From: a phage
Reading direction: 5' to 3' (one strand)
Assembly: GCA_020318295.1 (NCBI GenBank)
Contig: GCA_020318295.1_4859.1
Length of the DNA: 37,697 nt
Shown: piece by piece, positions 1,683 to 30,118 of the stretch
Position numbering within the stretch: the stretch's first letter is position 1
How the letters are laid out: each line of letters starts with the position of its first letter
Notes under the pieces: model-generated
Databases searched by the model: none
What the model saw: only the letters and a program-made list of their open reading frames with translations
What the model was told of the DNA's origin: nothing
Position numbers and translations under genes: made by a program

Positions 1683-4600
1683 TTAGTTGATTTTAGCCGG
1701 CAAGGCTGGGACGTCTTCACCATCTAAGATGCGTCCGATATTCTCCCCACCACGATACCCGACAGCGTTGGTGGTTCCGATGCGCATGATAGAACCCACG
1801 ATACGTGCGTCGACGGAATCACGACCAAAGATAATGTCGAGTTCCTGCCCGTCTTCCGTTTTGTTGGTTCCATACATCACTTCCTGAACCGTCGTTTTCA
1901 GCTGGTTAGCAATAACCATCTTATCCGCTGCTGCCATCTCTACCCGGTGTGTGATGTAGAATCGGACACACAGGCTATTGTACGCTAACGGCACCCCCTC
2001 AACACGAAAATCACCGTTGACTCGACCGTCCTTCGGCTCGTCACGTTTGAGAGCCAGCGCAGTCTTCCGACGTATACGGTCGTATTTACGAACCATCTCC
2101 GCCAAAGACGGGGTCATATCTTCCACCTCGCCGTGGTAAACCACTTCGATTTTGTCGATAAACCCACGAACACCAGAGCGTGGTGCAAAGGAGCTTAACT
2201 CACGCAGCGTTTCCGCTGCTTCTTTACTGAACCCGCTCATATCGCCGGTCAGGTTGTCGGTGAAGGTGCATAGAATTGAATCCACGTCTACGTGGTCCCC
2301 TTCTTTTACCATCTCCAACAGGTTCTGGGTAAACGTCATTGTGACTTCTTTGAGTTTGGTAACATCGGCTTCAGCCTTAGCAGCGAACCGCTCACTAATG
2401 GCGTTGGAGTCCTCAATTACTTCTTCCCCTTCAATCAAAGCGACAGTTGCCAGTATCCCGTTTTTAAAACTGACCTGCGTTGGATCGTAGATGTCTGGTT
2501 CAAAGTGTTGTTCGTTGTACGTGATAACGGCACCGGCAGGGAGTTTATCTCCGCGCTTCCATTTCGTTACCAGAGTGTGTGGGTAGTAAGTCCCTTCGTG
2601 CGGACCGAACCAACGGCCCAGTGGGAAAGCTTCTTCCTCTCCGTCGTCGTATTTGATTTTAACGTGGTCGTTAAGAACCTCCACAATCTTGCCAGGTTTA
2701 TCGATTACGCGTGCGTGCTTCACAGAAGTACGGTGTGCCACGAACTTTTCTTGCTCGGTACGATACGGTGTGGTGGTTGCGCCAACACAACTGGTCGCAG
2801 AACCGAATTGAATCCCAACGAAGTTCTGACGCTTAGCATCGTCCATCAGGGTATCCGGCACCAAGCCATCAATAAACGACAGTGCCTCACCTGGCTTCAG
2901 TTTATCGAGGTCCTTTTTAAAGGTCGTGCCGTCCACGGTGTCGTAACGCGGATTGTTTGTTGCAAAGGCGGTGATACCTACATCGCCGTTATCGACCGTG
3001 TTACCGGAGACAATCCCCAGGTCGCTCGGTTGGAATTCACGGGTACTGTAGACCATGGTCTTGCGGTTACGACCACCTGTACCGCCCATGGTAACAACAT
3101 CTTTTTCTTTGATGTTCTGTACCGGGTTTGCGCCAGGAGCCAGCAGAACAGACGGGTCGGAGTTAATTGCACCCCACACCATGTCCTGCGTCAACTCAAA
3201 CTTACGATTCGAGTTAGGCGCGTTGTTGTAGTTACGCATCGCCCGCACCATTGCGGTGTAGATGTGATACGAAATACGTTGGTTCCCGATGAACATCATT
3301 TCGTCACCGTTAATTTCCGGTAACGTGTGGTCCGTCTGCAGCAGTTCATTAGAACGCTCCAGTAAGCCGATAAAGGTTTCCGGCTCGCCCATTTTCCTGA
3401 GGATACGCGCGTGCATGTCGTCAACAAATGCGGTCCGCATCAGTTTCAGCTCTTTGATGTAGCGTGGTGTTAGCCCATCTGCATCGCGTAACAGGTTCAG
3501 GTAAATGTCTTCCCGGTCAACTTCCGACTCGGTATACGTGGTAAAATGTTTAATGTAACGGTCTAAGCCGTTGACAATCATCCTCTGTTGATCGTTCTCG
3601 CAGACAATTGCAATTTTCGCATCCTGGAGACGAATAATGGAGTCGAACTGACCTTTATCGATACGTTGTCCGACAGAGAGAACCTCGTAACTGATACCAA
3701 AGTGTTTCAACATCCCGGTTAACCCGAGATAGTACGCAAACACAAAGCCCAGCGAGATTGATTTGCCCATCAGTGACAGTTCGGTCATTTCACGTGGAGC
3801 CTTAGAGGTGTCCACGCCAAAGACTTCGGCGAGCGTACCCAGTGGTTCGGTCTTATCCTTATCCACTCGATAGAGCTGGGAGTTTTTATCCATACCGACG
3901 ATGACATGACTCCGCGGTTTCTTCGCCACAGGTACCAGCTCGACACGGTCCGCGTCTGCCAGTTGCCCTTCGTTAAAGAATGCCGCTTTCTGTTTAATGT
4001 CAAAGTTCCATTGGTACCCAATTGCGTTGAACGCTGCTACACGACGTGCCACCTCGGTGTACTGACGCGGCAGTTTAGACAGCGGATCGAACACATTCGC
4101 CAGTTTTGCATCAGTGATTTCGGTGTTCTTTGGATCGACCGCGCGAGTAATAATCGCGTTAGTGAGCCAACGTCCGTAATCATTGACGACTTTATCACTG
4201 CGACGGACAAAGTTCTTCCCGTAGGCAGTGGTTAACGCTACAGTATCGTGGGACACTTTACGGATAGGAAGATCAACGCGCTGACGACGCATTGTATATT
4301 CTACACCATTCGCAACCCAAGTACCGTCTTCGGTTAATGCAGGAATTGAGAAACGTACCGTGGTTGGTTCTCCGCCAATCGGCTGAATACGCAACGTGTG
4401 GTGTTCGATATTCCCGGTAACGGAAATCTCTTTCTCAACAGTGTGATTGTGAATCGCCAAACCGAGACGCTGAGACGATGCTACTGCACCCAGAACATCT
4501 TTCGGGAAGATTTCCTGGTTGTACTGACGAATGATTTGGTCGGTGGTATTTTCCGCCCAGGCTTCATCCGTAACTAAGCGTTCAATCTTCTTAGGCTCGG

Positions 4601-5888
4601 CTTTAACTTCGAGTTTCTTCGGATCGATGGTCAGACCTTCGCCGTACGTCTCTTTAGGATTGTACGGGTTGGGTAAGTTTACGAAACGTTTAGAAGATTC
4701 GTTCAGAAACTGATACGCTTTGGCGGTGACGCGGCCCGCTTCTGCCAGGCGCTCAACTTCCTGTTTAATCACAGCATCGTGTGGGATGGTGCGTTCTACG
4801 ACGATGGTGGTTGGTTTGACATCTTCTTTCGGCGCTTCGATGACCAGATCTTCTTTCTCATCGAACTCATGATCGTTCAATGTATCGTCAACGTTGTCGC
4901 TTTGTGTTGCTTCATCGTCGACGATATCGAGGCTTTCTTCCGGTTTACTGGCAACGGTTTCAACAGCATCGTCGTCCTCTCCCAGATGTACGCGTTCATC
5001 CCCTTCCGGTGTAACGAACTCGTCATCTTCGTAGTCGGTAGACGGCGGTGTGGTCATCACCGTAGTCAGTGTACGGTAGAACATTCTGCCCATCTGCACG
5101 TCAGTCAAACGACCACCGGCAGACTTACGCATTCTTTCAATTACACCCATGTTCATGGATGTAAAACCACCGTTGTGTGTGAAGATAAAGTTCACACGAG
5201 ACAGCTGGTTCATGTCCATACCGTCGAACAGGGTTGCTTGCTGATCGCCGTAAGCCCAACCGAACAGTTCCAGTAACCACAGCAGGTTAAAGTCTTTAAA
5301 GTGTTCCAGTTTGGTTTTAACACGATCGTTATACGTCATTTTAAAACGATCGAAAGAAGGCAGTACGTTACCCAGTTCGATGATGTAGTAGTTCTGACGC
5401 ATGTACTCACGTGAGTCAGTTTTCATCTGGTTAGTTATCAGCAGCTGAATGTTGTGCAGACGTTCGTACCAGGACATCAGAGTATCAGGGTAGAAATAAT
5501 GCGGCAGCATCGGGGTGTAGTTTTCGATGAGCAGCACTTTCGGATCGGAACGTACCACGCCGTCTTCAATCATGCGACGAATACGACGGTTGTTACGATG
5601 GTACTGGAAGATTTGGCGCTCTTGACCAACAACCGGTTTCTTACGCGGGTGGCCAATAATGCCGTCTTCAGGCAGCTGGAAGTGGTGACGAATCATCGCC
5701 GGTTTTTCCAGCTGACCAAAACATGGTGTGGTTAACGGTGGTGCTAAAACCACCTGGTCTAAATCGATGGTGTGGTAGATAGAACCACGTGGGAGCTGGA
5801 GCTTCTCCAGCGGGATAATACGCGGACGACCGAACTCATCGGTCTTGCGCACGGTAAAGCGCTGGTTAAACTGTTTCAGAAAAATCAT
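1683..5888 (-). CDS. multisubunit RNA polymerase beta' subunit, C-terminal portion (1401 aa)
   Basis: N-terminus GRPRIIPLEKLQLPRGSIY resembles E. coli beta' GEPIIVPSQDVVLGLYY just after the catalytic loop; FIFTHNGG...RKSAGGRLTDVQMGR resembles the bridge-helix region (FISTHGARKG...TANSGYLTRRLVDVAQD); C-terminal ARIVGSIMRIGTTNAVGY resembles the beta' C-terminal block NVIVGRLIPAGTGYAY. Contains an acidic insertion (DYEDDEF...DDEATQSDNVDD) at roughly 4800..5050. Confidence 0.6.
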   Translation of the reverse strand: MIFLKQFNQRFTVRKTDEFGRPRIIPLEKLQLPRGSIYHTIDLDQVVLAPPLTTPCFGQLEKPAMIRHHFQLPEDGIIGHPRKKPVVGQERQIFQYHRNNRRIRRMIEDGVVRSDPKVLLIENYTPMLPHYFYPDTLMSWYERLHNIQLLITNQMKTDSREYMRQNYYIIELGNVLPSFDRFKMTYNDRVKTKLEHFKDFNLLWLLELFGWAYGDQQATLFDGMDMNQLSRVNFIFTHNGGFTSMNMGVIERMRKSAGGRLTDVQMGRMFYRTLTTVMTTPPSTDYEDDEFVTPEGDERVHLGEDDDAVETVASKPEESLDIVDDEATQSDNVDDTLNDHEFDEKEDLVIEAPKEDVKPTTIVVERTIPHDAVIKQEVERLAEAGRVTAKAYQFLNESSKRFVNLPNPYNPKETYGEGLTIDPKKLEVKAEPKKIERLVTDEAWAENTTDQIIRQYNQEIFPKDVLGAVASSQRLGLAIHNHTVEKEISVTGNIEHHTLRIQPIGGEPTTVRFSIPALTEDGTWVANGVEYTMRRQRVDLPIRKVSHDTVALTTAYGKNFVRRSDKVVNDYGRWLTNAIITRAVDPKNTEITDAKLANVFDPLSKLPRQYTEVARRVAAFNAIGYQWNFDIKQKAAFFNEGQLADADRVELVPVAKKPRSHVIVGMDKNSQLYRVDKDKTEPLGTLAEVFGVDTSKAPREMTELSLMGKSISLGFVFAYYLGLTGMLKHFGISYEVLSVGQRIDKGQFDSIIRLQDAKIAIVCENDQQRMIVNGLDRYIKHFTTYTESEVDREDIYLNLLRDADGLTPRYIKELKLMRTAFVDDMHARILRKMGEPETFIGLLERSNELLQTDHTLPEINGDEMMFIGNQRISYHIYTAMVRAMRNYNNAPNSNRKFELTQDMVWGAINSDPSVLLAPGANPVQNIKEKDVVTMGGTGGRNRKTMVYSTREFQPSDLGIVSGNTVDNGDVGITAFATNNPRYDTVDGTTFKKDLDKLKPGEALSFIDGLVPDTLMDDAKRQNFVGIQFGSATSCVGATTTPYRTEQEKFVAHRTSVKHARVIDKPGKIVEVLNDHVKIKYDDGEEEAFPLGRWFGPHEGTYYPHTLVTKWKRGDKLPAGAVITYNEQHFEPDIYDPTQVSFKNGILATVALIEGEEVIEDSNAISERFAAKAEADVTKLKEVTMTFTQNLLEMVKEGDHVDVDSILCTFTDNLTGDMSGFSKEAAETLRELSSFAPRSGVRGFIDKIEVVYHGEVEDMTPSLAEMVRKYDRIRRKTALALKRDEPKDGRVNGDFRVEGVPLAYNSLCVRFYITHRVEMAAADKMVIANQLKTTVQEVMYGTNKTEDGQELDIIFGRDSVDARIVGSIMRIGTTNAVGYRGGENIGRILDGEDVPALPAKIN

Positions 5889-5906
5889 ACATGTGCCTTA
5901 TGGGTA

Positions 5907-7520
5907 TCATTTCAACAGCGCAGCAGTCGTTCTTTTAATCACGTTGTTAACCGGATTGATTTTGAAACTGCCGTCTGTTGCAAACCAGTAGTTTTTCGAA
6001 CTGACCCACTTCCGATTTTCCTCGAGCGCTTCGGTTGACATCGGGCAGTTTGCTGAGCCGGTGTCACCATCGTAGTCACCACCCAAGCCCCCTAATCGGG
6101 ATGGGTGCGGTGCCATGGATTCCACAAAGGTTTTCACGGTACGGTCAGGGAAGCTAATTGCACCCTTCTCTTTTAACGTGACCCAATCGTCTTCCAGTTC
6201 ATGCAAATAGAGGGAAGAGGTGGTGGTCTCCAATCTTATGGTCGAGGAGTAAGTCGAACCGCGTCCCGTAACCGGATAACGCGTGATGAACGAGAAGTAG
6301 TCATTCCAAATATCGTAACCTGACAAATAGAGGAGTTCCGCTAAGCTCAGTCCGCGGACAAGCTTACGGTCACGTCCTTCCGGCAGGTCTTCAATATCGT
6401 AAAAGATTTTGAAGCTGCGTTTGTCCTGGTAGATTAATGCCACGTAATGGTCCGGATCAATCATCAGCGGTTTATGTCGAAGCTCGCGCGCTTCCATTCT
6501 GTTGATGAGCGTTTCGATGCCATCGTCGGTAGTGAAAAGGTCATACACCCGCCCGGAGACTTCCAGGAACTCACGCTTGAGTGTTTTGGTGTTAACGCCG
6601 TATAAGTTACCGTCCCCTGCCCGGATGTTACTGAGGTAACGTTCACGGATGTGGTATTGAGCCACAGGCAGTAATGCCTTCAGGGTTTGGTACAAACCGA
6701 TACGGGTATCCGTTGGACGAATCGCATCTTCGCGACCCATGACCTTGGAACCGGTTGAGAATGAAGACAGTACGTTACGCGTACCGTTCATTAACTTACG
6801 TGACGTCACTTTACGACGTGCAAAACCACCTTTACCGTCTTGGATGTTGAAAAAGTACATCCAGATATCATTAAAGGTTTGTTGGAGCTTCCAGCGAACC
6901 GGGTCAGTCAGTTCCGTTCGCGTACTGCGGTCGGGGATTGCACGTGCCAGAGAAATCAGACGGCGGTAGAGTCCGCCAATCTCTTCTTCTTGGTCGCGGC
7001 CATCCTGACGAATGACCAAATCACGTAATCCCGCAGGCAGAACCAGCACATAGCGGCTGAGACTGACCGGACGGAACTTATTGAAGAAATCGACTGTCTC
7101 GTCGCGACGCATCGATTCGTTGCGTCCCGGTGTCAGTTGTTCGTAGTAGCGTAGGAAGAAGTTGAAGCCGGTGTCTGCACCTTTATCACTGGGCAGAGCC
7201 GGCTCGAAGTCTTTTTCTTTCTCATTCCAGATAGCGAATCGCTTCCCGGAACAGATTTCTTCGTACAGCTGTTTCAGCTGGAACAATGCCAAACAAACGG
7301 TCGGTGAAATGATATCCAGTTTGATATCAATGTACGAGAACGTTGAGTCTCGTGCTTCGCTCCCTGTGAGGCCAAAAATTTCGGTTGAATACAGTCCTTC
7401 AGGGTGAAAGTTTTTCGTCAGTCCCTGAAAGGTGTCTGTTGTTGTAACTGGTTTTAAATGCGACACCAGGGACTTGTTGACGTTTAACAAGTAAAAGTCA
7501 ACCCAGTTTAGCTTTCTCAC
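5907..7520 (-). CDS. multisubunit RNA polymerase beta' subunit, N-terminal portion with DxDGD catalytic motif (537 aa)
   Basis: YVLVLPAGLRDLV...DG...GGLYRRLISLA resembles E. coli beta' [20 protein letters not shown]...LYRRVINRN; GKGGFARRKVTSRKLMNGTRNV resembles [28 protein letters not shown] at 6063..6077 sits where NADFDGD does. GTG start with AGGAG 9 nt upstream. Confidence 0.7.
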   Translation of the reverse strand: MRKLNWVDFYLLNVNKSLVSHLKPVTTTDTFQGLTKNFHPEGLYSTEIFGLTGSEARDSTFSYIDIKLDIISPTVCLALFQLKQLYEEICSGKRFAIWNEKEKDFEPALPSDKGADTGFNFFLRYYEQLTPGRNESMRRDETVDFFNKFRPVSLSRYVLVLPAGLRDLVIRQDGRDQEEEIGGLYRRLISLARAIPDRSTRTELTDPVRWKLQQTFNDIWMYFFNIQDGKGGFARRKVTSRKLMNGTRNVLSSFSTGSKVMGREDAIRPTDTRIGLYQTLKALLPVAQYHIRERYLSNIRAGDGNLYGVNTKTLKREFLEVSGRVYDLFTTDDGIETLINRMEARELRHKPLMIDPDHYVALIYQDKRSFKIFYDIEDLPEGRDRKLVRGLSLAELLYLSGYDIWNDYFSFITRYPVTGRGSTYSSTIRLETTTSSLYLHELEDDWVTLKEKGAISFPDRTVKTFVESMAPHPSRLGGLGGDYDGDTGSANCPMSTEALEENRKWVSSKNYWFATDGSFKINPVNNVIKRTTAALLK

Positions 7521-7549: not shown

Positions 7550-10500
7550 ATGGCAAAAAGAGGCAAAGACGGTTTCGATGATATCGATTTAGATAGACTC
7601 GACGACTGGGATGATTTCGGTGAACCACCCCGTCCCAAAGACGAGAAAAAACGAAGCCCGATACTCAGTACCCTGAATGTTGCCAGGAAGTCGGCGTTGT
7701 CAACTATCTGGCCAGAAGGGAAACGTGACCAAGTTATCCTCAAGGGGATGCCTAAGCCGGCAGCTGATGCATACGAGGGCTATCAGTCAGCGGCAGCTGC
7801 AGCAAAGGACATTTACGCCCATACGAAAGGGGAGCTTGAGAAGACCGAGCGCACGCTGAAGATGCAAGCGCGTCAACTCGGTCCGACAATGAAGAAATAC
7901 TTGCCGGATGCAGTTACTAAACGCTTCGACAAGTGGTCAAAATCTGACCAGTTAGATTACCAGAACTACGATCCGAATCAGGCATTGATGGATCGTGAAC
8001 TGGGCGACGTATTCTCAGGTGTGCCAAAGGACGCCGATGAGCAACGTCAGCTGCAGGATCGCATGGTAGAGGACAAGCTCCGTGACAGCATCAAAGAGAT
8101 GCGCGCGGATGCAATGCACCAAACCATGATTGGGATGGCGAAAGATATTAACCTGTTAACCGGGTTAAGCCGTGGGGTATTCTTAAACATCGAGCGTAAG
8201 AAGCTCGAATTGCAATACCGCACCCTGTTCGCCATTCAAGACATCGTGAAGATGAAGCAGTCGGAGTTCGATCGTAACACGCCTGCTTTAGAAGCCATCG
8301 TGAAGAACACGGCACTGCCGGATTACGCGAAGGAAGATTTCTCAGAAGTCCGTTGGGCGAACGTTAAACGCCAGGCTGCGGAATGGATGAACCCGTTGCG
8401 TTATGCTGACGGGTTTATGGACATGATTCGCGAAAATACCAAGAAGAAAATTTCTGGTATATTTGGCGAAGGTCGTGGTTTGTTAGAGTCCGTTCTCGGC
8501 ATGGGTGTTGAAGACGATTTCGGCATGAGCGATAGCTCTTCGTTGACTGCCGAACGTCGCAAAACAAATGCTCGCGATAAAGCAACTGCATGGGGTAGCG
8601 GATTCCTTGCGAAGAAACTACTCGGCCCACAAATCGAGAAACTCCAGAAATGGACTCGTGAGGAGATGGAGAAAAATCCAGAGGTCATGAAACGCCTGCA
8701 GAAGGGCGCGTTCACCTTTGGTAATCTTTCCTCTATCTCGAACTCAGCTATCGCAGGCGAAACGCAAGGACCGTTGGCGGATTTGTTCCGGGTATTGAAT
8801 GAACTCGGTATTGTCCAACCGTTAAACCGCGAGAAAGCTTTTCTTGATGAGCGTAATGGCGAAACGTTAAGCCGTTCGGCGAAGTTTGACCGCAAAGCGT
8901 ATCTTAGCATAGTTGAAGTTATTCCTGCCTGGCTGGCAGAGATTAACAAATCTGTTCGTCGTGGCTATGGCGAACATGCCGACCTGGAATATGACATCAC
9001 TAGCCGTGGTTTCGTAGACCGCAAAGTGGTCGGTAATCGTGTACGAAAAGCGGTTGCAAATGATGAGCAGCGTCTGCGTCTTCAGAATTCCATTAATAGC
9101 ACTGTGGATTTTGTTGACCGCGGCAAAACACTCTCGCAGAAGGATCGTCAGCATCTTGCCGACTATATTGAGTCGCGTGCCTCGCAGGGCCGTGCATTCG
9201 ACGTAGAAGCAATTTTGAAAGACCCGATGCATCTTCATCGGTATATGCCAGGAAACTCTGCAGAACGCATTAAGGAAGCGTTACAGGGGCATTCTGATAG
9301 CCTGGTCGGTGGTAGCAACGAATTAAGTAACGAACTGGCACGCAAAATCTCCACAGTGCAGTCATCTATCACCCAACGTCAGGCAATTATCGACGAGGCG
9401 GTGAATATTTACGGCGAGCGAGCGTTGCGTGATGCGGGTATCTTTAACTACGACGCGAAGAGTGACACCTTCGGCGTGGATAAAGACCTGTCCGATCCCT
9501 ATACCTTGTTTAATGACTTGGCGATGGGTAAGACACGCAGCGGGCGTGCATTGACTCGTGACCAGGAGATTCAACGTAAGCTGCAAAATGGTTCGGCGTT
9601 AGGCGACTATCTGCGCCGAATGAACCAAGGGGCAAGTGGTGGTGCCGATGACACGTCGTTACCGCCGGCTTTACGTGGCGGTGGTAAAGGCCGCGGAATG
9701 TCGCCTCGGCAGCTAGCCGCGGTTCTCTACGGTGAAACCTCGACTAACTTTGTTGAATTGTTGAGTCAACGTAACCGTGGCGAAGAAGCGCCACGGAATA
9801 ACTTTGACGGTATCATCGAAGCGATTCGTGGTAACAACAACAGTGACACTCTCCAGAAAATTCTGGAACACGTCAGAAGTATGGACGAAGAAGGGGTTCT
9901 CCTGGCTTCGTTAGCAGGGGGTGCTGGTTCTGGTGATGAAGAAATGGGTCCGCCTCGCCCTGGCGGTGGTAGCGGTGGCGGTAGACGCCGTCGTATTATC
10001 ATCGGTGAGGATGGGCTTATTCGTCGTTGGGGTGGTGTGTTGTTCGACACCGCAGCAGGAATCGGTGGCTTTGCGAAACGTGGTGTTAAGGGTGCCTGGA
10101 ATAAACTGAACCAGTTCGGTGGCTGGGCACGCGGTAAAGTCGCAGGAATGGGTGGCGGAGAAGGTCCTGGTTTCTTAACCCGGATGCGTGGCCTTATTAG
10201 TGGTAGTGTCCGTGGGGGCTTTGAAGCAGTAAGCTCTTTCGGTAAAGGACTACTGGGTATCCGCGACATTTACGATGACCACGGTAATGTTGTTCTGCAG
10301 GGCGCACGCCTGGAAGCTGGGGAATACTACCAGGTTATTGATGGTAAGATGGTTCAGTTGAAAACACTGGACGACATCAAGCTGGGGAGCGACATTGTTG
10401 ACTCCGCAGGTAATCTGGTATTAGCGGCCGCTGACTTAGCCGCAGCCGGTAAACTCCGCTACTATAAAGGCGGGAAAATCCAAGCGCTGACCCAAGGTCT

Positions 10501-13500
10501 GGCCAGTAAGATTGGTTTAGGCTTTAATAAGGTGGCTAAGCTACCGAAACGGTTCCTGGATTTCCTGTCACCAAAAGCGGGCAGCATCGTTGGTAAGATT
10601 AAGGACTGGCTGAACGAGATTCCGGAAGGCGAAGAAAAGACACGCCTCCAGAAAGCGTTCAATCGCGTAACGAGCTTGCCGGGTAAAGTGCTCGGTTTTG
10701 CGAAACGTGGTGTCGATCGTCTGAAAGACATGATTACCGACAACCCACTGACGCGTTGGTGGAAAGGCCGTAAAGATGGTGGGGGTGGTGGTTTCAGTCT
10801 CTTCTCATCAACCGGCAAGAAAACCAACCACATCCTTATCCGTATCTATAAACTGTTGAACCAACGTTTACCGGGCGATCCGGAAGACGAAAGTTGGACA
10901 GAGGAAATGGAGAAGGGCGTCGGGGGTGGCGGTAGTACGATCGGTCGTGCAGTACGCGGGGCGTATGATCGTGCGAAAGCGTCATTGTCTGAACGTTTTG
11001 GTGGACGTTGGTCAAGAACAAAAGCGTTCTTTGGTCGTGGACGTGACCGCCTGCGTGGTTGGTTCAGTGGTTTCCGAGGCCGGGCTGGGGATATGCTCGA
11101 TGGATATCGTGGAGCACGACACGACATTGCTACACGTTACGAAGTTGAACGTCGGTTGGCTGGACGCGATGACGATGTTGCTGAGTTTTATCGCAGCCAT
11201 TTGAACGCGAAAGGTGGCCTTTCTGGCCGTAAAGTCTACGGCGATGCGAAGGAAGACCTTGAGACCGCCCGTGATGCAGCAGGGAGGGTTATCAACAAAG
11301 GGAAGAATGCCGCCAAGTCAGCAGGTGCAAGGTTATTCGAACGCTTGGACCGAATGATTGGCTTGCAAGAGATGTCGTGGTTTAACACCATGCGCGAATC
11401 AGTATCCCGTGCAGGTGGCGACGATGGCATTATTCGTACCATGTTTGCGAAGTTCGGTAAACGTAACAAGCCGCCTGAAGGTGATGAAAAACGCGACTAC
11501 TTTAACTTCTTCAAACGTTGGCGTGAGAAACGTAAGGAGAAGAAAGAGAAAGCGCAGGGCTCCAAAGGGAAATCTGGCGGTCTGTGGGATATGGTGAAAG
11601 GCTTACCTATCATCGGTCCCATCGTCAGTATCTTGGGAACTGTGGGTAATATACTCGGTTCTATCACGAAATGGGGTGTGTTAAAACCCGTAGGTCTTTT
11701 AGGTAAGGCTGCGTGGAACGTTGGTAAGTTCGCAGTAACCCGTTTGGCGGCACCCGCGGTGTCCGCTGTGGCAACTGCAGCGTCTGCCGTCGTGACAGCA
11801 GTGGGCTGGCCGGCAATTCTTATCGGTGGCGCGATCGCTGCGGCAGGTTACGCCGCGTACAAGATCGCAACGACTACCTATACCCAGTACCTGGATAAGA
11901 TGCGTTTAGCTCAGTACGGTTTCCGTGATTACGATAAGTGGTCGTCGGACGACGGGGCGAAGGCGCGTTACTTAGAAGACGCATTGCGTGAGTATGTGTC
12001 TTACGCGGAAGATGGCCAAGCCAGTCTCCGCGGGCTAAGTGGAAAAGACGTTCAGAAGTTAGCTGAAGGGTTCGGTATCAACGTTGAGGAAAAAGGCGAG
12101 ATGTTGGCCTTCCAAGCGTTTATGCTTCAGCGCTTCATTCCGATTTATCTCCGCTGGATTACGGCACTGAAATCGATGCCGAACAGTATCCAGTTGGCTG
12201 ACGTCGGCGACGCGAAGAAAGTATCGAAAGAGGACATGCAGACACTCTTCAACAAAATGAAGATGACTAAGGATGCAAAAGCGTTCTCTTCGTTAACTGA
12301 CCCACGCAAAGTCAACCAAGGTTTCTTCTCGAAAGCTTGGGACGTTGTAACCTTTACACCGAAGGAGTTTTTGAGCGGTGAAGAGGTTATGGAAGTGCAG
12401 AATGAAGTTGAGCGTGCAATCAAGTTCAGAATGGACGATAAGAAAGCACGTAAGTACGGAATGGCACCGGCTGTAGAGGGGATTAAGTCCGCGGGCGTTG
12501 ATGAAGCTATCAACAAACTTGGACAGTTGGATAACGAACGTAATAAAAATCTGGCGAAGGTAGAGGGTTGGGAAGACGGAACAGAGCAGGTTCAGATTCA
12601 GGTAGACTGGAATGCGGTGCTCGACCAGAAAGACATGAATGCGATGGAGTCGGTACGTTGGAAGACTTATGGTTTTACCACCATCGACAACGCCACACGC
12701 ACGTTGATTACGGTATTCGAGAAAAACGTCATCAAAGACATTGACGTGAAAACCGCAAGCTACAAAGGTGATTGGAAGAAAGCAATCGCCTCAATGGTTC
12801 CAGACGCTATCGGCACACCGAAAGAAGATCGTTTGAAGCGGTGGTTCTTTGACCGTTTCTTACCGGTATTCATGACGTACTTGGTTGGGGTGAAACGCTA
12901 CCTGCCAACAGCTGATCCGCTGAACTTGAAACTGACCGGCGGTTACCTGTACGAAATCAGTTTGATGATGTCAACAGCTTATAGCTTGAAGGGCGGTATA
13001 AGACAGTCGGTGTGGGAAGTGAATATCAACCCATTAGGGGGCGATGCTAACACTAATCCGTTGTCTATCAAAGCCGAGCTGGAAACGCTGAAGCTGTTGT
13101 CAAAAGAAGCTGACCTTGCCGTGCGTAACATGATTAAAGCCATTAAAAATAATGGCAAGCGTGCACGCTGGAAGGATCGTAACAAGAACCGCAGTTCTCT
13201 GGAAGTCACCGGTGAAGATGAAGAAGACTCGAACATCAGTTCGGGAGATTCTTTGTCATCTGACGGTGCTCGCGCCTCAGGCTACATTCCATCGGGCACG
13301 AGTGGCGGTGTGCCGGGTAACTTAGGTCAAGTCGTCGATGCGGTCGGTGGTGTGCGGAACTACGCTGCAATGACCACTGGTTCGTCTTCGATTAACCTGA
13401 GTGATGTGAAAGACGGTGATTATAAGTCACTGGCTGAAAAATACCCGATAGAAATGTTGGGTAGAAAGGGTGCGTTGAACGTTCCGAATATCAAAGCATT

Positions 13501-14671
13501 GATTACCGATGCAGCGAACATGATGGGCGTGCCACCTGCAGTGGCGTTAGCAATGGCTAAGGCGGAGTCCGGATTTAACTACACCGCTAAAAACCCGTAT
13601 GCTTCGGCGTCTGGGTTGTTCCAGTTTGTTAACGGCACGTGGGACGGGATGATGAAGGGGTATTCGCGGAAGTTTGGTATTCCGCGTGTTAACCAGATGG
13701 ACCCGTGGGCGAATGCTATCTTGGGTGTGCAGTTCATTCGTGACAACATCCAACAAGCACAACGTGACCTGGGTGGTAAAGCACCACCTCCAGCCGTGGC
13801 TTATCTGTACCACTTCCTAGGTGCAGGCGGCGGTAAGAAATTCCTGGAAGCGTGGAAGCGTAATCCGAATATGGCGGCATCGAGTGCTCCTGGGATTACA
13901 TCTGCAATACTGAGAGGGAATGCCAACGTCTTCTACAGCAACGGTCGTATACGTAGCGTAGATGGGGTTATTCAGGAACTGAACCGCCGCATGGGTGCAA
14001 TTTCCGCCAACGAAGTCGCCGCCGATCCGAGCAAGACGAAGGATATGGTTGCAGGATTGTCGCCTAATTCACCAACCAACCCGGCAGCAGCAATGGGTGC
14101 ACCGGCCGCTAATGACCCGAGTCTGTCGCCAGCAGATAACCTGCCAGCAGATAATGCTAATCGTCGTGATGACGCATTGACGCAGAAAGGGGCCATGGCG
14201 GCACAAGATGCAATGGCTACCGCCGCAGGTAATGTAGGACCAGCAGCACCTACACCAACCACAGGCGGTACCGGAACATCCGATGCCTCAACAACGGCCG
14301 AAACCGTAGCGTCGCAAGCTGCAGCAGAAGGATTGTCTGCGACGGATGTTGCTAAAGTGAAAGCAGGCGCGGAAGCGCAGGTTAACGCAGCAGCTCGTCC
14401 AGTTGCCGCTCCAACTTCTGATGCTACAGCATCGACGCCAACGCTGAATGGTGACCCGATAGATGTTCAGCAGCTCAAGGTACTGATTCAGTCTCGCGAT
14501 TACTTGAAAGAGATTCGTGATATTTTGAAATCAAATCCAAGAGCGGCAAACGACACACGGGGTGGTAGTATCCAGCAAGCGGCAAATGTGCCTCCTCCTG
14601 GCTCAGCTGCACGTAGGCAGGAAATAACCCAACCGACACCGTCGTTAAACGTAAGTCGGAAAGCAAGCTAA
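7550..14671 (+). CDS. giant virion-associated protein (2373 aa) with C-terminal lytic transglycosylase domain; resembles phiKZ gp181-type proteins
   Basis: Single uninterrupted 7.1 kb ORF. Gly-rich low-complexity tracts at about 9900..11100, a long hydrophobic Gly/Ala-rich segment at about 11590..11870 (GLPIIGPIVSILGTVGNILGS...AILIGGAIAAAGYAAYKI), an SLT-like block near 13.5 kb, and an Ala/Pro/Thr-rich tail at about 14080..14450. Confidence 0.8.
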   Translation: MAKRGKDGFDDIDLDRLDDWDDFGEPPRPKDEKKRSPILSTLNVARKSALSTIWPEGKRDQVILKGMPKPAADAYEGYQSAAAAAKDIYAHTKGELEKTERTLKMQARQLGPTMKKYLPDAVTKRFDKWSKSDQLDYQNYDPNQALMDRELGDVFSGVPKDADEQRQLQDRMVEDKLRDSIKEMRADAMHQTMIGMAKDINLLTGLSRGVFLNIERKKLELQYRTLFAIQDIVKMKQSEFDRNTPALEAIVKNTALPDYAKEDFSEVRWANVKRQAAEWMNPLRYADGFMDMIRENTKKKISGIFGEGRGLLESVLGMGVEDDFGMSDSSSLTAERRKTNARDKATAWGSGFLAKKLLGPQIEKLQKWTREEMEKNPEVMKRLQKGAFTFGNLSSISNSAIAGETQGPLADLFRVLNELGIVQPLNREKAFLDERNGETLSRSAKFDRKAYLSIVEVIPAWLAEINKSVRRGYGEHADLEYDITSRGFVDRKVVGNRVRKAVANDEQRLRLQNSINSTVDFVDRGKTLSQKDRQHLADYIESRASQGRAFDVEAILKDPMHLHRYMPGNSAERIKEALQGHSDSLVGGSNELSNELARKISTVQSSITQRQAIIDEAVNIYGERALRDAGIFNYDAKSDTFGVDKDLSDPYTLFNDLAMGKTRSGRALTRDQEIQRKLQNGSALGDYLRRMNQGASGGADDTSLPPALRGGGKGRGMSPRQLAAVLYGETSTNFVELLSQRNRGEEAPRNNFDGIIEAIRGNNNSDTLQKILEHVRSMDEEGVLLASLAGGAGSGDEEMGPPRPGGGSGGGRRRRIIIGEDGLIRRWGGVLFDTAAGIGGFAKRGVKGAWNKLNQFGGWARGKVAGMGGGEGPGFLTRMRGLISGSVRGGFEAVSSFGKGLLGIRDIYDDHGNVVLQGARLEAGEYYQVIDGKMVQLKTLDDIKLGSDIVDSAGNLVLAAADLAAAGKLRYYKGGKIQALTQGLASKIGLGFNKVAKLPKRFLDFLSPKAGSIVGKIKDWLNEIPEGEEKTRLQKAFNRVTSLPGKVLGFAKRGVDRLKDMITDNPLTRWWKGRKDGGGGGFSLFSSTGKKTNHILIRIYKLLNQRLPGDPEDESWTEEMEKGVGGGGSTIGRAVRGAYDRAKASLSERFGGRWSRTKAFFGRGRDRLRGWFSGFRGRAGDMLDGYRGARHDIATRYEVERRLAGRDDDVAEFYRSHLNAKGGLSGRKVYGDAKEDLETARDAAGRVINKGKNAAKSAGARLFERLDRMIGLQEMSWFNTMRESVSRAGGDDGIIRTMFAKFGKRNKPPEGDEKRDYFNFFKRWREKRKEKKEKAQGSKGKSGGLWDMVKGLPIIGPIVSILGTVGNILGSITKWGVLKPVGLLGKAAWNVGKFAVTRLAAPAVSAVATAASAVVTAVGWPAILIGGAIAAAGYAAYKIATTTYTQYLDKMRLAQYGFRDYDKWSSDDGAKARYLEDALREYVSYAEDGQASLRGLSGKDVQKLAEGFGINVEEKGEMLAFQAFMLQRFIPIYLRWITALKSMPNSIQLADVGDAKKVSKEDMQTLFNKMKMTKDAKAFSSLTDPRKVNQGFFSKAWDVVTFTPKEFLSGEEVMEVQNEVERAIKFRMDDKKARKYGMAPAVEGIKSAGVDEAINKLGQLDNERNKNLAKVEGWEDGTEQVQIQVDWNAVLDQKDMNAMESVRWKTYGFTTIDNATRTLITVFEKNVIKDIDVKTASYKGDWKKAIASMVPDAIGTPKEDRLKRWFFDRFLPVFMTYLVGVKRYLPTADPLNLKLTGGYLYEISLMMSTAYSLKGGIRQSVWEVNINPLGGDANTNPLSIKAELETLKLLSKEADLAVRNMIKAIKNNGKRARWKDRNKNRSSLEVTGEDEEDSNISSGDSLSSDGARASGYIPSGTSGGVPGNLGQVVDAVGGVRNYAAMTTGSSSINLSDVKDGDYKSLAEKYPIEMLGRKGALNVPNIKALITDAANMMGVPPAVALAMAKAESGFNYTAKNPYASASGLFQFVNGTWDGMMKGYSRKFGIPRVNQMDPWANAILGVQFIRDNIQQAQRDLGGKAPPPAVAYLYHFLGAGGGKKFLEAWKRNPNMAASSAPGITSAILRGNANVFYSNGRIRSVDGVIQELNRRMGAISANEVAADPSKTKDMVAGLSPNSPTNPAAAMGAPAANDPSLSPADNLPADNANRRDDALTQKGAMAAQDAMATAAGNVGPAAPTPTTGGTGTSDASTTAETVASQAAAEGLSATDVAKVKAGAEAQVNAAARPVAAPTSDATASTPTLNGDPIDVQQLKVLIQSRDYLKEIRDILKSNPRAANDTRGGSIQQAANVPPPGSAARRQEITQPTPSLNVSRKAS
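13480..13900 (+). other. lytic transglycosylase (SLT family) domain within the giant protein
   Basis: MGVPPAVALAMAKAESGFNYTAKNPYASASGLFQFVNGTWDG...AYLYHFLGAGG: the catalytic E-S dipeptide followed by a GLFQF block, as in family-1 lytic transglycosylases and phage gp16-type virion lysins. Domain boundaries are approximate. Confidence 0.7.
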
Positions 14672-17576: not shown

Positions 17577-18009
17577 GTTCGATAATCACTTTTACGATAT
17601 CTTCTACCGGAGGGTAATACCACAACACCACACTGTTTCGTCCCAAGTCTTTTGGAAACGTTTGGCAATATGCAATGTCGGTGCCGAAGCGCTCAGAGAG
17701 CTTTAAAACGTTCTCTGGGAACTGACAACCACCACGCCAGTCGTGTGTATAGAGTACCTGCTGTAATAACTTCACATTAGCATCGAAGAAGTACAGATTT
17801 TCTACCGGCGCAATGTGTGGTACCGGAATTGGTGTGTCGGTGAGTACGAACTCCAAACCACCGCATTGTTCTGAACGCTCCGCTAGGAATTTCAGATGCC
17901 ATGGCATTAGACCGTGGTCTTCCCAGACGATATTGTTGACCAGTAAACGATCAGCGTATTCGTCGTAATCAACCGTGAACAGTTTCTTCGCCATCGGTAA
18001 ACGCCTCAT
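17572..18009 (-). CDS. hypothetical protein (145 aa; start may be the internal Met at 17994)
   Basis: ORF in the minus-strand block; its stop lies in the T-tract of the terminator. Confidence 0.5.
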   Translation of the reverse strand: MRRLPMAKKLFTVDYDEYADRLLVNNIVWEDHGLMPWHLKFLAERSEQCGGLEFVLTDTPIPVPHIAPVENLYFFDANVKLLQQVLYTHDWRGGCQFPENVLKLSERFGTDIAYCQTFPKDLGRNSVVLWYYPPVEDIVKVIIER

Positions 18010-18910
18010 CTTTTACAGTAAGGGAACCGTTTACTTCGATTTCAGCAGCGGTCATGTCTGCTTCTTTAACGAAGATACCGTCCGCGTTCAGGAAACCCTT
18101 ACGGTCTTTGATTTCATCCCATGCCAGAGAGAAGCACTGTTCCAGCGTCATATCGTACGCATTAGCCAGCGCATTGGCGTATTCGACCATCTGAGCGAAG
18201 TGACATTCGATCATTACCGCGTCGCTGTTCTCGAAGTGTTTATATTCGAGTTGCTTAGCCGAGTCGATGCCTGCCTGATCCCAGATATAATCAACCGCAC
18301 AAGTAAGATGGAAACGCATTTTGTGGAACAGGTAATGACTGTTCCCGGCGTGTGGTTTCTTTGAACGTGCGTCGTTGACGTATGTGCTGATATCGGTTGA
18401 GTCAAACTTAATGAGTTCCATCAAGTTAACCAGCACGACCAGAGCATCACCGATACCGTCCATGATGTAACGACGTTTGTTTTTACTGATACCGGTTGCC
18501 GCTTCACCGTCTTCTTCGTAGAGTTTGGTGGCTTGGCTATACCAGACGCCGTTATCCAGAATACCACGCGCTTTAGACCAACCCATAACGTTAGTAATAC
18601 ATTGTGGGATGGTGTACAAAGGTACGTAACGCGGACGATCAACCGTACCACGATACTCGACACCTTCCAACGTCCACGGCATTTCGAAATCATTTATTTC
18701 CAAACTCTGGTCGCCCGTGAAGACTTTACCTTCGACGTAAGTGTGACCGGTTTCACTGTTCACGCATAGGGTGTACAGTTTCTCAAAGGACCACGGTTCA
18801 ACAAACTGACGTTGGCAGAATCCAGCCAGAAGCTCATTAATCTGTGCCAGGTACTGGTTAGGTTCAACAATAACGTTATACGGAATCTGGATAATGAAAC
18901 GGTCGCCCAT
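17969..18910 (-). CDS. hypothetical protein (313 aa)
   Basis: ORF with AAGGAG 8 nt upstream of the ATG, directly downstream of a terminator hairpin. Confidence 0.6.
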   Translation of the reverse strand: MGDRFIIQIPYNVIVEPNQYLAQINELLAGFCQRQFVEPWSFEKLYTLCVNSETGHTYVEGKVFTGDQSLEINDFEMPWTLEGVEYRGTVDRPRYVPLYTIPQCITNVMGWSKARGILDNGVWYSQATKLYEEDGEAATGISKNKRRYIMDGIGDALVVLVNLMELIKFDSTDISTYVNDARSKKPHAGNSHYLFHKMRFHLTCAVDYIWDQAGIDSAKQLEYKHFENSDAVMIECHFAQMVEYANALANAYDMTLEQCFSLAWDEIKDRKGFLNADGIFVKEADMTAAEIEVNGSLTVKDEAFTDGEETVHG

Positions 18911-21231: not shown

Positions 21232-22269
21232 TTAGATAGCCACCGGTGCAGATATTTTTTCATGAGACTGATACCCAACGATCTCAAAATCTTCGAATTT
21301 ATAATCGAAGATAGATTCCGGTTTACGCTTGATGATCAGTTTCGGTAAAGGTAAAGGTTCGCGAGTCAGTTGCAGCTTGGCCTGTTCCAGATGGTTGGAG
21401 TACAGATGTACGTCGCCACCGCTCCAAACGAAATCGCCCGGCACCATGTTAACTTGCTGAGCTACCATGTGAATCAGTAACGCGTAAGACGCGATGTTGA
21501 ACGGTGTTCCCAGGAAGAAGTCTTGGGAACGTGCATACAGCTGACATGAAAGAATGCGGCGAGGTATTTCAAGTGCGTTCATCTCAACGTGGAATACTGC
21601 GTCATCTGCTACAGCTTCATTACTAAAGCGGGAATCGTTAAATTGATCTGGAAGGTTCTTTTCAAACCAATCAAGACGCTCGTCGATAGACAGCTCACGA
21701 GTGTAGAACTGAAAGAACGCATGACACGGAGCTAACGCCATTTGATCCAACTCACCCACGTTCCATGCGCTGACAATAATACGGCGACTGTCAGGATCGT
21801 TACGCAGCTGGTCAATCACCTTAGAGATCTGGTCGTGCTCTTTCAGAAGTACACGCGCATCGAACATTTGTGAACCGTCGTCCGCGTCGCCATAATCCGC
21901 GTATCCAGCATCTTGCAGTTTCTCGAGTAAAGCTGCATTTTTCTTAGGCACCAGTTTCACATCTTTCCAACGTCTCCATTGTGCACCATACAGGGGGCCA
22001 AGGTTCCCATTCTCATCTTGCCACTCCCGCCAAATGGTAACGCCGTTATCTTCCAGATATTTGGTGTTGGTATCCCCACTAAGGAACCACAACAGTTCGT
22101 GAATAATAGAACGCAGGTGGAGTTTTTTAGTCGTGACTAACGGGAAACCTTTGCGCAAATCAAAACGCATTTGGCGACCAAAGACGGAGAGAGTCCCTGT
22201 CCCAGTACGATCGCCTTTAACATGACCCTCGTCCAGAATGTTTTGCATCATCTCAAGATATTGTTTCAC
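21232..22269 (-). CDS. thyA: thymidylate synthase (ThyA family) with two insertions (345 aa)
   Basis: Near-identical blocks to E. coli ThyA: MKQYLE.MQ..LDEG...[61 protein letters not shown] (catalytic Cys), [10 protein letters not shown] (Asn that specifies dUMP), [21 protein letters not shown]. Insertions of about 36 aa (nt about 21850..21966) and about 45 aa (nt about 21555..21702). Confidence 0.9.
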
Positions 22270-28777: not shown

Positions 28778-29453
28778 ACAGCGCAGTGTCCTTTACGTCA
28801 GTACCGACGTATTGAGCAAGAAAACGGGTGGACTCCTTAAAGGGGTTCACCTTATCTCTTTTTATTTGCGCGATTGCTTCTTCCGTTAATTCGCTGGTCA
28901 GCATACTCGGTCGGGTAATGGTGAAATCCGGAATCGGTTTCTGGAAATGGCCCGCGTGTTGTTCTATCCACGGGTACCAGTCGTACATTATCCAACCGTC
29001 CCACGCCGAAGCAAGTCGTCCTGGTGTAAGATCGCTGTGAGGAATAACAACGACGTCTACTTGCACTTCGTTGTAGTAGTAGCGAAGTTCTTCCAAAAAC
29101 GCATGACGTTCTTCATCATCGAGATCAGCGTATGGCCACAGGTTAAACGTTAAGACAGGTCGCTCGATAGGAGCGTGCATCTGTATCGTCATTAACATTG
29201 CCTGTACTTCGTTCTTTAGCGTAAGCAACATTTCTGTTGGCTGCGCGTTCTGCAACGCGCGTTTATCACGCTCCGCGAACTTTTTATTCCAGTCCTGAAT
29301 TCCTACCACTTCGGCCCACGCATCCGTGAACCGCATCCGATACACTTCTAAATCAAGCTTCTCTAATACATCAGGCTGCAGCACTTTCGCCCAACCAATT
29401 CGTGTATCGAAGATTGTGTCGATATCGACTAAGAAACGGCGTCCTAATCTCAT
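28725..29453 (-). CDS. hypothetical protein (242 aa)
   Basis: ORF; ATGA overlap with the upstream gene. Confidence 0.55.
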   Translation of the reverse strand: MRLGRRFLVDIDTIFDTRIGWAKVLQPDVLEKLDLEVYRMRFTDAWAEVVGIQDWNKKFAERDKRALQNAQPTEMLLTLKNEVQAMLMTIQMHAPIERPVLTFNLWPYADLDDEERHAFLEELRYYYNEVQVDVVVIPHSDLTPGRLASAWDGWIMYDWYPWIEQHAGHFQKPIPDFTITRPSMLTSELTEEAIAQIKRDKVNPFKESTRFLAQYVGTDVKDTALFSLRRHQQDDDSQTQTP

Positions 29454-30118
29454 TCCGGGCGTCCTAAGTTGTTACCGATGTGCATTGCTTTAAAGTACGA
29501 AGACCATGTACGCGGCGCTTTTGAACTGGTACGCTCAGCCCCTTCCAGGTTGATGCGACCTTTACCGGTTTGCCGTAGCGATTGATAGAACGCACGTTGT
29601 AACGTATCGTTACCACCACGCGCCCACAGGAACTCCTGGAGCGTTGAGTCGTGTCCATCCGAGTACATGATGTACGCTTCTGGAAACGAAACACCCGAGG
29701 CTTTGGAAGGCCCTACTACCTGACCTGAGAGTTTATCGCGGACTTTATCGTTCTTCGCCACCGCCATTTTCTTCTCTTGCATCTGCGTCTGGCGACGTGC
29801 AGGTAGCCGGAAGACCAAATGGGGATAACGGGTACGCTGTAGGATACCGGTTTTCGGTTCCGTGAGCCACAGGCGCTGACACAAGTTCAGTCCCATCGCT
29901 TCGCAAATTTTAATATTGCGCATATGGTCAATTTTGACCTTGCCGCCAGTTGGGTTGTAAACAGGCAACCCTTCGCGCAGACGATTGAACTCTTCGTCAG
30001 ACATTCGTGAGAAAGCGCGCTTGGCAGCTTCCGCGTTAATCCCGGTCGGGTCAACTAAGTTCAGTAACTGTAAAGCATAAGCTTCTGCTTTTTTTCGCCG
30101 TGCCGGGTCTAATCTCAT
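29450..30118 (-). CDS. hypothetical protein (222 aa)
   Basis: ORF; ATGA overlaps on both sides. Confidence 0.55.
   Translation of the reverse strand: MRLDPARRKKAEAYALQLLNLVDPTGINAEAAKRAFSRMSDEEFNRLREGLPVYNPTGGKVKIDHMRNIKICEAMGLNLCQRLWLTEPKTGILQRTRYPHLVFRLPARRQTQMQEKKMAVAKNDKVRDKLSGQVVGPSKASGVSFPEAYIMYSDGHDSTLQEFLWARGGNDTLQRAFYQSLRQTGKGRINLEGAERTSSKAPRTWSSYFKAMHIGNNLGRPE

Follow-up and report, generated by a model that had tools for sequence, protein, structure and literature searches.

Two adjacent genes of an SPN3US-type jumbo phage very probably encode the β′N and βN subunits of a virion-packaged RNA polymerase

We analyzed a 37,697-nucleotide (nt) stretch of phage DNA (GenBank assembly GCA_020318295.1, contig GCA_020318295.1_4859.1; the whole stretch is called the window here) in which positions 1683 to 7520 hold two adjacent genes on the minus strand. 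The upstream gene (5907..7520, GTG start) encodes a protein of 537 amino acids (aa), and the downstream gene (1683..5888, ATG start) encodes one of 1,401 aa. We consider it very probable (roughly 93%) that the pair encodes two subunits of a five-polypeptide enzyme, the multisubunit RNA polymerase that an SPN3US-type (Seoulvirus) jumbo phage packages in its virion (vRNAP). Of the two genes, the upstream one is the ortholog of SPN3US gp240 and phiKZ gp180 (β′N), and the downstream gene is the ortholog of SPN3US gp241 and phiKZ gp178 (βN). An earlier reading made from the letters alone (the original prediction) gave coordinates and lengths of the open reading frames (ORFs) that our ORF check reproduced exactly, and it was correct in pointing to a multisubunit RNA polymerase of the phiKZ-like jumbo phage type. 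It took the two cistrons, however, for the N- and C-terminal halves of β′, split just after the catalytic Asp triad. The β′N/βN pair is already known and characterized and is not one β′ gene cut into neighboring halves. The corrected reading matters for annotation only: the 1,401-aa protein is β, not β′.

Across the full 5,838-nt region, Salmonella phage SPN3US and over 30 related Seoulvirus-type jumbo phages show nucleotide identities of 97.9 to 99.2%; for 27 records, in all likelihood the listed Erwinia phage records (also 27 in number), identity is 60 to 80%. Because the window is 98 to 99% identical to SPN3US and its relatives, we identify the two ORFs as SPN3US gp240 and gp241. These are essentially the same genes, with 97.9% DNA identity and with junction, lengths, and neighbors unchanged, and only strain-level substitutions separate SPN3US from the window. 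The gene order agrees with SPN3US_0239/0240/0241, and the SPN3US pair is flanked by 0239 (a giant gene) and by 0242 to 0245.

Published work on SPN3US assigns gp240 to β′N, gp42 to β′M, gp244 to β′C, gp241 to βN, and gp218 to βC, and all five proteins were found in heads by mass spectrometry (PMC5105663, PMC5694885). Four of the five genes (gp240, gp241, gp218, and gp244) are marked as essential; only gp241, gp218, and gp244 were knocked out and analyzed, and the amber mutant of each loses all five proteins from the particle (PMC5105663, PMC5694885). As the loss of any one of these three removes all five, the authors concluded that the vRNAP assembles before packaging. In Pseudomonas phage phiKZ, Gp180 (with the motif DFDGD) copurifies with Gp178, Gp80, and Gp149, and about 10 copies of Gp180 are packaged per virion. 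According to a 2026 review, the vRNAP comprises at least five β/β′-like polypeptides, with no α, ω, or σ homologs. The published subunit assignments concur with the profile and fold results reported below. By analogy with SPN3US, and given the near-identity of the DNA (97.9%), we expect the two proteins to occur in the virion and to have a role in infectivity in the present phage as well.

Judged by its sequence, the 537-aa protein makes up the N-terminal portion of β′. It matches phrog_2986 (E = 2.9e-238). Profiles were needed for any comparison beyond this because single-sequence searches were nearly blind: Pfam scans of the 537-aa and 1,401-aa proteins gave no match, and searches of the PDB returned only a marginal match for β′N (E = 0.39) and irrelevant matches for the 1,401-aa protein. 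We therefore searched the PDB with a profile of 21 β′N homologs (37 to 90% identity). The best solved match was the β′N subunit of the nonvirion RNA polymerase (nvRNAP) of Bacillus phage AR9 (7S00/7S01 chain d; E = 5.9e-13), and the profile also matched plastid β′ (E = 5e-10), cyanobacterial β′/γ (about 1e-9), and dozens of bacterial β′ chains (about 1e-7). The Pfam family RNA_pol_Rpb1_1 was matched by 3 of the 21 homologs. The codons for DYDGD (aa 482 to 486; 6063..6077, minus strand) specify the Mg-binding catalytic Asp triad of the double-psi β-barrel, as placed by motif position; across the 21 homologs D482 never varies, and the conservation of D484, G485, and D486 is at least 90%. DYDGD aligns with NADFDGD of plastid β′ and with DYDGD of AR9 β′N, and a GKGGFARRK block (aa 229 to 237) aligns with the matching block of the same two chains, in agreement with the original prediction, which had placed the N-terminal β′ blocks and the triad in this protein.

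The same prediction had the β′ chain break soon after the catalytic triad, and this also holds: the 537-aa chain ends 51 residues past DYDGD. AR9 β′N, its closest solved relative, has the same DYDGD and a similar chain end, about 53 residues past the motif. As both end points lie close behind the triad, the β′ break is real and common to virion and nonvirion enzymes. The β′ of cyanobacteria and plastids (γ/RpoC1 plus β′/RpoC2), whose chains are among the best matches of the profile, is likewise split, and its first piece carries the Asp triad, but in that chain of 680 aa the break comes far later, about 190 residues past the triad. There, the following gene holds the second β′ piece, an arrangement that the original prediction assumed and that is not valid here.

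The start of β′N differs between sources, with gp240 listed as 519 aa by Thomas et al. in 2016 (PMC5105663) and the GenBank coding sequence being 537 aa. The 519-aa version would start at GTG codon 19 (7466). The GTG at 7520 is preceded by a GGAG at a distance of 7 nt, and conservation among β′N homologs begins at residue ~10 (YLLNV); for these two reasons, the 537-aa start looks right to us, rather than the 519-aa one.

An nvRNAP subunit as the best solved match, together with the fact that both polymerases of these phages are built from split β and β′ pieces, could suggest that the pair belongs to the nonvirion (middle/late) polymerase instead. This is very improbable. AR9 leads the matches simply because no solved vRNAP is known, and the two genes are 98 to 99% identical to SPN3US gp240 and gp241, which were found in purified virions and tailless heads and are lost together in vRNAP amber mutants. 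Furthermore, the genes sit in a head-gene module beside gp239, gp243, and the prohead protease, and the N-terminal extension of βN (see below) is without counterpart among the solved nvRNAP chains.

The 1,401-aa protein, which matches phrog_3148 (E = 0), is, as far as profile alignments and a predicted fold can tell, an extension of ~445 aa followed by the N-terminal roughly 80% of β, ending inside the double-psi barrel. At E ≤ 1, a profile of 12 βN sequences (26 to 80% identity) retrieved 30 sequences from the PDB; 25 were β chains, and none was β′. The top match was Thermus thermophilus RpoB (1IW7 chain C; E = 2.2e-8), with three colinear blocks in which βN-profile positions 910 to 972, 989 to 1113, and 1300 to 1356 correspond to T. 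thermophilus β residues 395 to 458, 533 to 653, and 822 to 880. The first of these covers the GPGGLTRERAG fork-loop region of T. thermophilus β, and the third covers GDKLANRHGNKG ... GVPSRM. In the 1,401-aa protein, ADKMVIANQLKT (aa 1321) aligns with the β block GDKLANRHGNKG, the first strand region of the β barrel, and 'ARIVGS...' (aa 1361 onward) aligns with the β block GVPSRM. In our own reading by eye, GGEPTTVRFSIPALTEDGTWVANG appears to sit in the N-terminal conserved β block P.MT..G.F.iNG.

The β-homologous body (aa 446 to 1401; 1686..4553, minus strand), delimited by profile and Foldseek, contains the N-terminal lobes of β, a GGTGGRNRKTM fork-loop region (aa 935), a conserved DD (aa 1016 and 1017) that corresponds to the RpoB D675 site of the PhiPA3/phiKZ vRNAP β, and the first part of the double-psi barrel. 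The identity of aa ~446 to 1401 to bacterial β is only 12 to 14%. An AlphaFold2 model of aa 440 to 1401 had a mean predicted local distance difference test (pLDDT) score of 68, and Foldseek matched it to PDB chains with E values of 1e-19 to 3e-17, a probability of 1.00, and template modeling (TM) scores of 0.38 to 0.46. The top 50 matches were bacterial chains C, I, M, or F, which were β wherever they could be cross-checked (8i23_C, 8dy7_C, 5zx2_C, and 5tw1_C). The body thus has sequence blocks and fold in common with bacterial RpoB (1IW7 chain C), but the β chain of the window breaks off within the barrel, its last ~200 residues probably being supplied by a separate protein, and its ~445-aa N-terminal extension is not present in cellular β. 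As the 1,401-aa chain stops near T. thermophilus β residues ~880 to 925 of 1,119, short of the barrel's C-terminal portion and of the clamp, it is incomplete as β and represents βN only.

These results already refute the model in which the two cistrons are halves of β′, and we give that model next to no chance. It drew on the 537-aa chain ending 51 residues past DYDGD and on short stretches of the 1,401-aa protein that resemble β′ motifs by eye. The motifs claimed for the second half were a GEPIIVPSQD-like block, the bridge helix, and a C-terminal NVIVGRLIPAGTG-like block, and none of them was found: no β′ chain was matched in the PDB by profile at E ≤ 1, and no β′ fold was identified among the top 50 Foldseek matches. 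The supposed C-terminal β′ block is the one that aligns with β GVPSRM, as ADKMVIANQLKT does with β GDKLANRHGNKG, and the literature puts the remaining β′ in gp42 and gp244. A profile and structure search, which the original prediction had itself proposed, therefore bears out β′ for the 537-aa protein and gives β for the 1,401-aa protein.

Between the β′N and βN genes lies an 18-nt intercistronic spacer (5889..5906, minus strand; tac cca TAA ggc aca tgt), so that the sequence across the junction, on the minus strand, is TGA tac cca TAA ggc aca tgt ATG. The two ORFs are in one frame with two in-frame stops, the second of which (TAA) is at 5898..5900, and an AAGG Shine-Dalgarno sequence (5896..5899) precedes the βN ATG by 7 nt. 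The spacer, its stops, and the AAGG were described correctly in the original prediction, as was the conclusion that the ORFs are separate polypeptides and not the product of a sequencing frameshift, the spacer being identical in SPN3US. The shared reading frame is true here but not conserved in relatives. Among the 66 related loci in which both genes were placed, 60 have β′N immediately upstream of βN, at distances between −26 and +84 nt; the two genes share a frame in 24 of these 60 pairs, lie in different frames in 36, and overlap in 15. In most relatives the two genes overlap or are separated by at most about 20 nt. Of the 120 β′N homologs listed, from about 900, nearly all are about 480 to 560 aa long, and none of 41 βN homologs contains a β′N part. 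Since gaps and frames vary while β′N length is nearly constant, and since no βN homolog contains β′N, the two are always separate cistrons, and the frame match here is due to chance. The conserved close spacing suggests that β′N and βN may be translationally coupled.

The least credible alternative is a single gene broken by assembly or sequencing error or by recent pseudogenization, or read through in a programmed manner into a fusion polypeptide: the shared frame and the 18-nt distance would fit it, but the junction is identical in SPN3US, two genes are annotated at this region in each of the 20 phage records listed, the two consecutive in-frame stops are of different types, the frames, overlaps, and homolog lengths in relatives are as given above, and sodium dodecyl sulfate-polyacrylamide gel electrophoresis with mass spectrometry places the peaks of SPN3US gp240 and gp241 in separate gel slices (about 60 and 159 kDa). 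An ancestral fusion or read-through, as might be read from the frame match, was also rejected, with only 24 of the 60 loci in the same frame and 15 overlapping.

The N-terminal extension of βN (aa 1 to 445) falls into three parts. The first is a basic α/β domain (aa 1 to 280; 5049..5888, minus strand) that is specific to virion-type βN and is a proposed capsid-targeting module. In an AlphaFold2 model of the extension based on 13 sequences, this domain is predicted to be compact (pLDDT about 85 to 95); its pI is 9.7 and its net charge +10. It is followed by an acidic linker (aa 281 to 365; 4794..5048, minus strand) that is predicted to be disordered, with pLDDT below 50 at aa 288 to 339. Asp and Glu make up 38% of the linker versus 15% of the whole 1,401-aa protein, and the net charge is −27. 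All 11 homologs examined likewise have an acidic linker (23 to 41% Asp plus Glu), whereas its sequence is not conserved. The third part is a helical connector (aa 366 to 445; 4554..4793, minus strand) with predicted helices at aa 370 to 383 and 389 to 403 (pLDDT about 74). The original prediction had noticed the acidic stretch and taken it for an insertion in β′; the stretch is real, but it lies ahead of the β body, which it links to the extension domain.

Foldseek found no structural relative of the aa 1 to 280 domain in the PDB, solved nvRNAP chains included. Against BFVD it returned only eight proteins at E ≤ 1e-15; three of these are full-length, vRNAP β-like proteins of 1,453 to 1,463 aa, and the rest are shorter or unnamed. 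One of the three full-length proteins, from Photobacterium phage PDCC-1, is named 'RNA polymerase beta subunit'. An exhaustive hidden Markov model search with the domain gave 1,129 cluster representatives, and the domain is N-terminal in the best 150 of these 1,129.

A long N-terminal domain without homology to cellular β has been described for gp241, and a role in head targeting was proposed by the authors (PMC5105663, PMC5694885). The βN homolog of 201phi2-1 is cleaved at TFE-275, i.e., at the boundary of the N-terminal domain. The modeled anatomy of the extension fits the published head-targeting hypothesis. It is also possible, although we find it doubtful, that the virion enzyme owes its special properties more broadly to the extension module: the model would allow a capsid-targeting and ejection handle, a substitute for σ or a fifth subunit at early promoters, and a linker that acts as a DNA-mimicking plug during storage in the head. 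Of these proposed roles, only head targeting is already in print. The extension is the obvious candidate for getting a ~300-kDa polymerase of five pieces into the prohead and through the tail, and also for the recognition of early promoters without σ.

Two further observations concern the linker and connector. The linker contains AVET (aa 308 to 311; 4956..4967), an A-x-E motif of the type cut by the SPN3US prohead protease (e.g., AVE-79 in gp47). This motif is close to the cleavage point of the 201phi2-1 homolog; SPN3US gp241 is nonetheless reported not to be processed. In the connector, 40 residues at aa ~391 to 432 (4590..4715; AEAGR..KAY.FL.E....F..LPNPYNPKETYGEAL) match designed consensus tetratricopeptide repeat proteins (E = 5e-6). 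We rejected such a repeat here, as only a single one is present and the match is probably a coincidence of composition or motif.

The remaining part of β is probably encoded within the window by a 222-aa gene (29450..30118, minus strand), the ortholog of SPN3US gp218, which matches phrog_3233 'RNA polymerase beta subunit' (E = 9.1e-94). It is 23.5 kb from the βN gene and agrees with SPN3US_0218 in size and position; we assign it to βC from the PHROG label and the published work. A search of 25 more window ORFs against PHROGs for further RNA polymerase subunits found only this gp218-like βC.

Together with the SPN3US studies, these results suggest how the enzyme may be put together. The upstream gene would supply β′ from its N terminus to about 51 residues past the DYDGD loop, and the downstream gene would supply the virion-specific extension of ~445 residues plus the first ~80% of β. 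The rest of β would come from the 222-aa βC, encoded 23.5 kb away, and the rest of β′ from two genes located beyond the window (in SPN3US, gp42 and gp244). The barrels of β′N and βN/βC would form the active center, as in cellular RNA polymerases, and the tight spacing of the cistrons may allow coupled, equimolar synthesis of the two active-site subunits. The basic βN domain on its acidic linker could then bring the preassembled enzyme into the prohead, being cleaved off as a propeptide in 201phi2-1, and the enzyme would be ejected with the DNA and transcribe the early genes.

Some points weigh against the vRNAP assignment or parts of it. We know of no structure of any vRNAP, and for this reason we infer how the subunits make contact and what the extension does. 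The model of the β body is only moderately confident, with pLDDT below 50 at aa 478 to 593 of the model. βC matched no β chain in the PDB, either as a single sequence or as a 16-sequence profile. Finally, SPN3US gp241 is reported to be unprocessed, unlike the 201phi2-1 homolog, and a simple model of a cleavable targeting propeptide is therefore not transferable unchanged.

The surroundings of the pair are also kept in distant relatives. The head-gene module order (giant gp181-like gene, β′N, βN, gp243-like gene, and prohead protease) is present in the window and in SPN3US, and the same order, including a Peptidase_S80 gene, occurs in the distant contigs L002, L004, L006, and L007. A divergent giant gene is at the same place in these four of the six contigs examined; in the other two (L003 and L005), a gene other than β′N is directly upstream of βN. 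On L003, an opposite-strand gene lies between β′N and P0041, a 1,898-aa protein (L003:1694-7390). P0041 has the same N-terminal domain and an in-frame insertion of ~400 aa in the β body, between residues matching about 581 and 767 of gp241. As a candidate β′N-βN fusion it was rejected, since it lacks the Asp triad and β′N is a separate gene on the contig. phiKZ has the same subunit types (gp180/gp178) and neighborhood, its gp181 and gp182 corresponding to SPN3US gp239 and gp238, and D1072 in the conserved DD of gp178 corresponds to D1017 of the window βN, but the phiKZ vRNAP sequences are very divergent from the window proteins. An extra gene, gp179, presumably lies between gp180 and gp178 in phiKZ.

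Interrupted βN genes may be common in metagenomic jumbo phages, judging from the lengths of the best 150 of the 1,129 representatives that carry the extension domain. Only 34 of these 150 are full length. Another 57 are 500 to 700 aa long, most of them ending at or a few residues past '...MRKQRGD' (equivalent to D539 of the window protein), and 54 are 1,000 to 1,130 aa long, many of them ending at or just past '...DRDD' (equivalent to D1016-D1017). Contigs L030 (5961-7504) and L074 (8729-10678) contain inserts of 1,544 and 1,950 nt, respectively, exactly between the D539 and L540 codons, the insertion context in relatives being '...MRKQRxD/xPIRK' (the slash marks the insertion point). In both contigs, GAT closes exon 1 and G is the last letter of the intron, and the 3′ end of the insert, up to exon 2, matches Rfam Intron_gpI above the gathering score (47.2 bits, E = 2e-10; 57.8 bits, E = 1.6e-13). 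The intron ORFs, of 372 or 485 aa, carry DUF723/CapR zinc-finger repeats. The window allele is intronless at this site (D539 codon, GAT/CTT; 4272..4274, minus strand).

A mobile group I intron, gp210, has been reported in PhiPA3 directly after the two conserved Asp residues of the vRNAP β, a site equal to phiKZ gp178 D1072 and Escherichia coli RpoB D675 (10.1101/2023.09.30.560319). The interrupted PhiPA3 gene, gp211/gp209, is the homolog of the 1,401-aa gene, whose equivalent codons (D1016-D1017; 2838..2843, minus strand) are uninterrupted. The D539 intron site of L030 and L074 therefore differs from the published PhiPA3 site, and the kind of intron ORF is different as well.

Upstream of β′N, and separated from it by only 29 nt, a divergent gene for a giant virion protein of 2,373 aa (7550..14671, plus strand) is the ortholog of SPN3US gp239 and matches phrog_3201. 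It contains an SLT lytic transglycosylase domain (aa 1984 to 2072; Pfam SLT, E = 2.1e-9) and is the giant gp181-like neighbor that had been noted from the sequence. This protein is context and no part of the polymerase. Elsewhere in the window, there are genes for a MazG-like nucleotide pyrophosphohydrolase (17969..18910), a thymidylate synthase (21232..22269), and a UvsX-like recombinase (30437..31930), all on the minus strand, and most of the remaining ORFs match PHROGs without known function.

In public records, the β′N and βN genes are labeled variously as 'beta subunit', 'alpha chain', or 'hypothetical'. In several SPFM phage records, versions of both polymerase proteins (P0035, P0036, P0038, P0142, P0143, and P0145) match the window proteins over only 3 to 12% of their length, although the scores are high, which suggests that these low-coverage versions result from frameshift errors in those assemblies.

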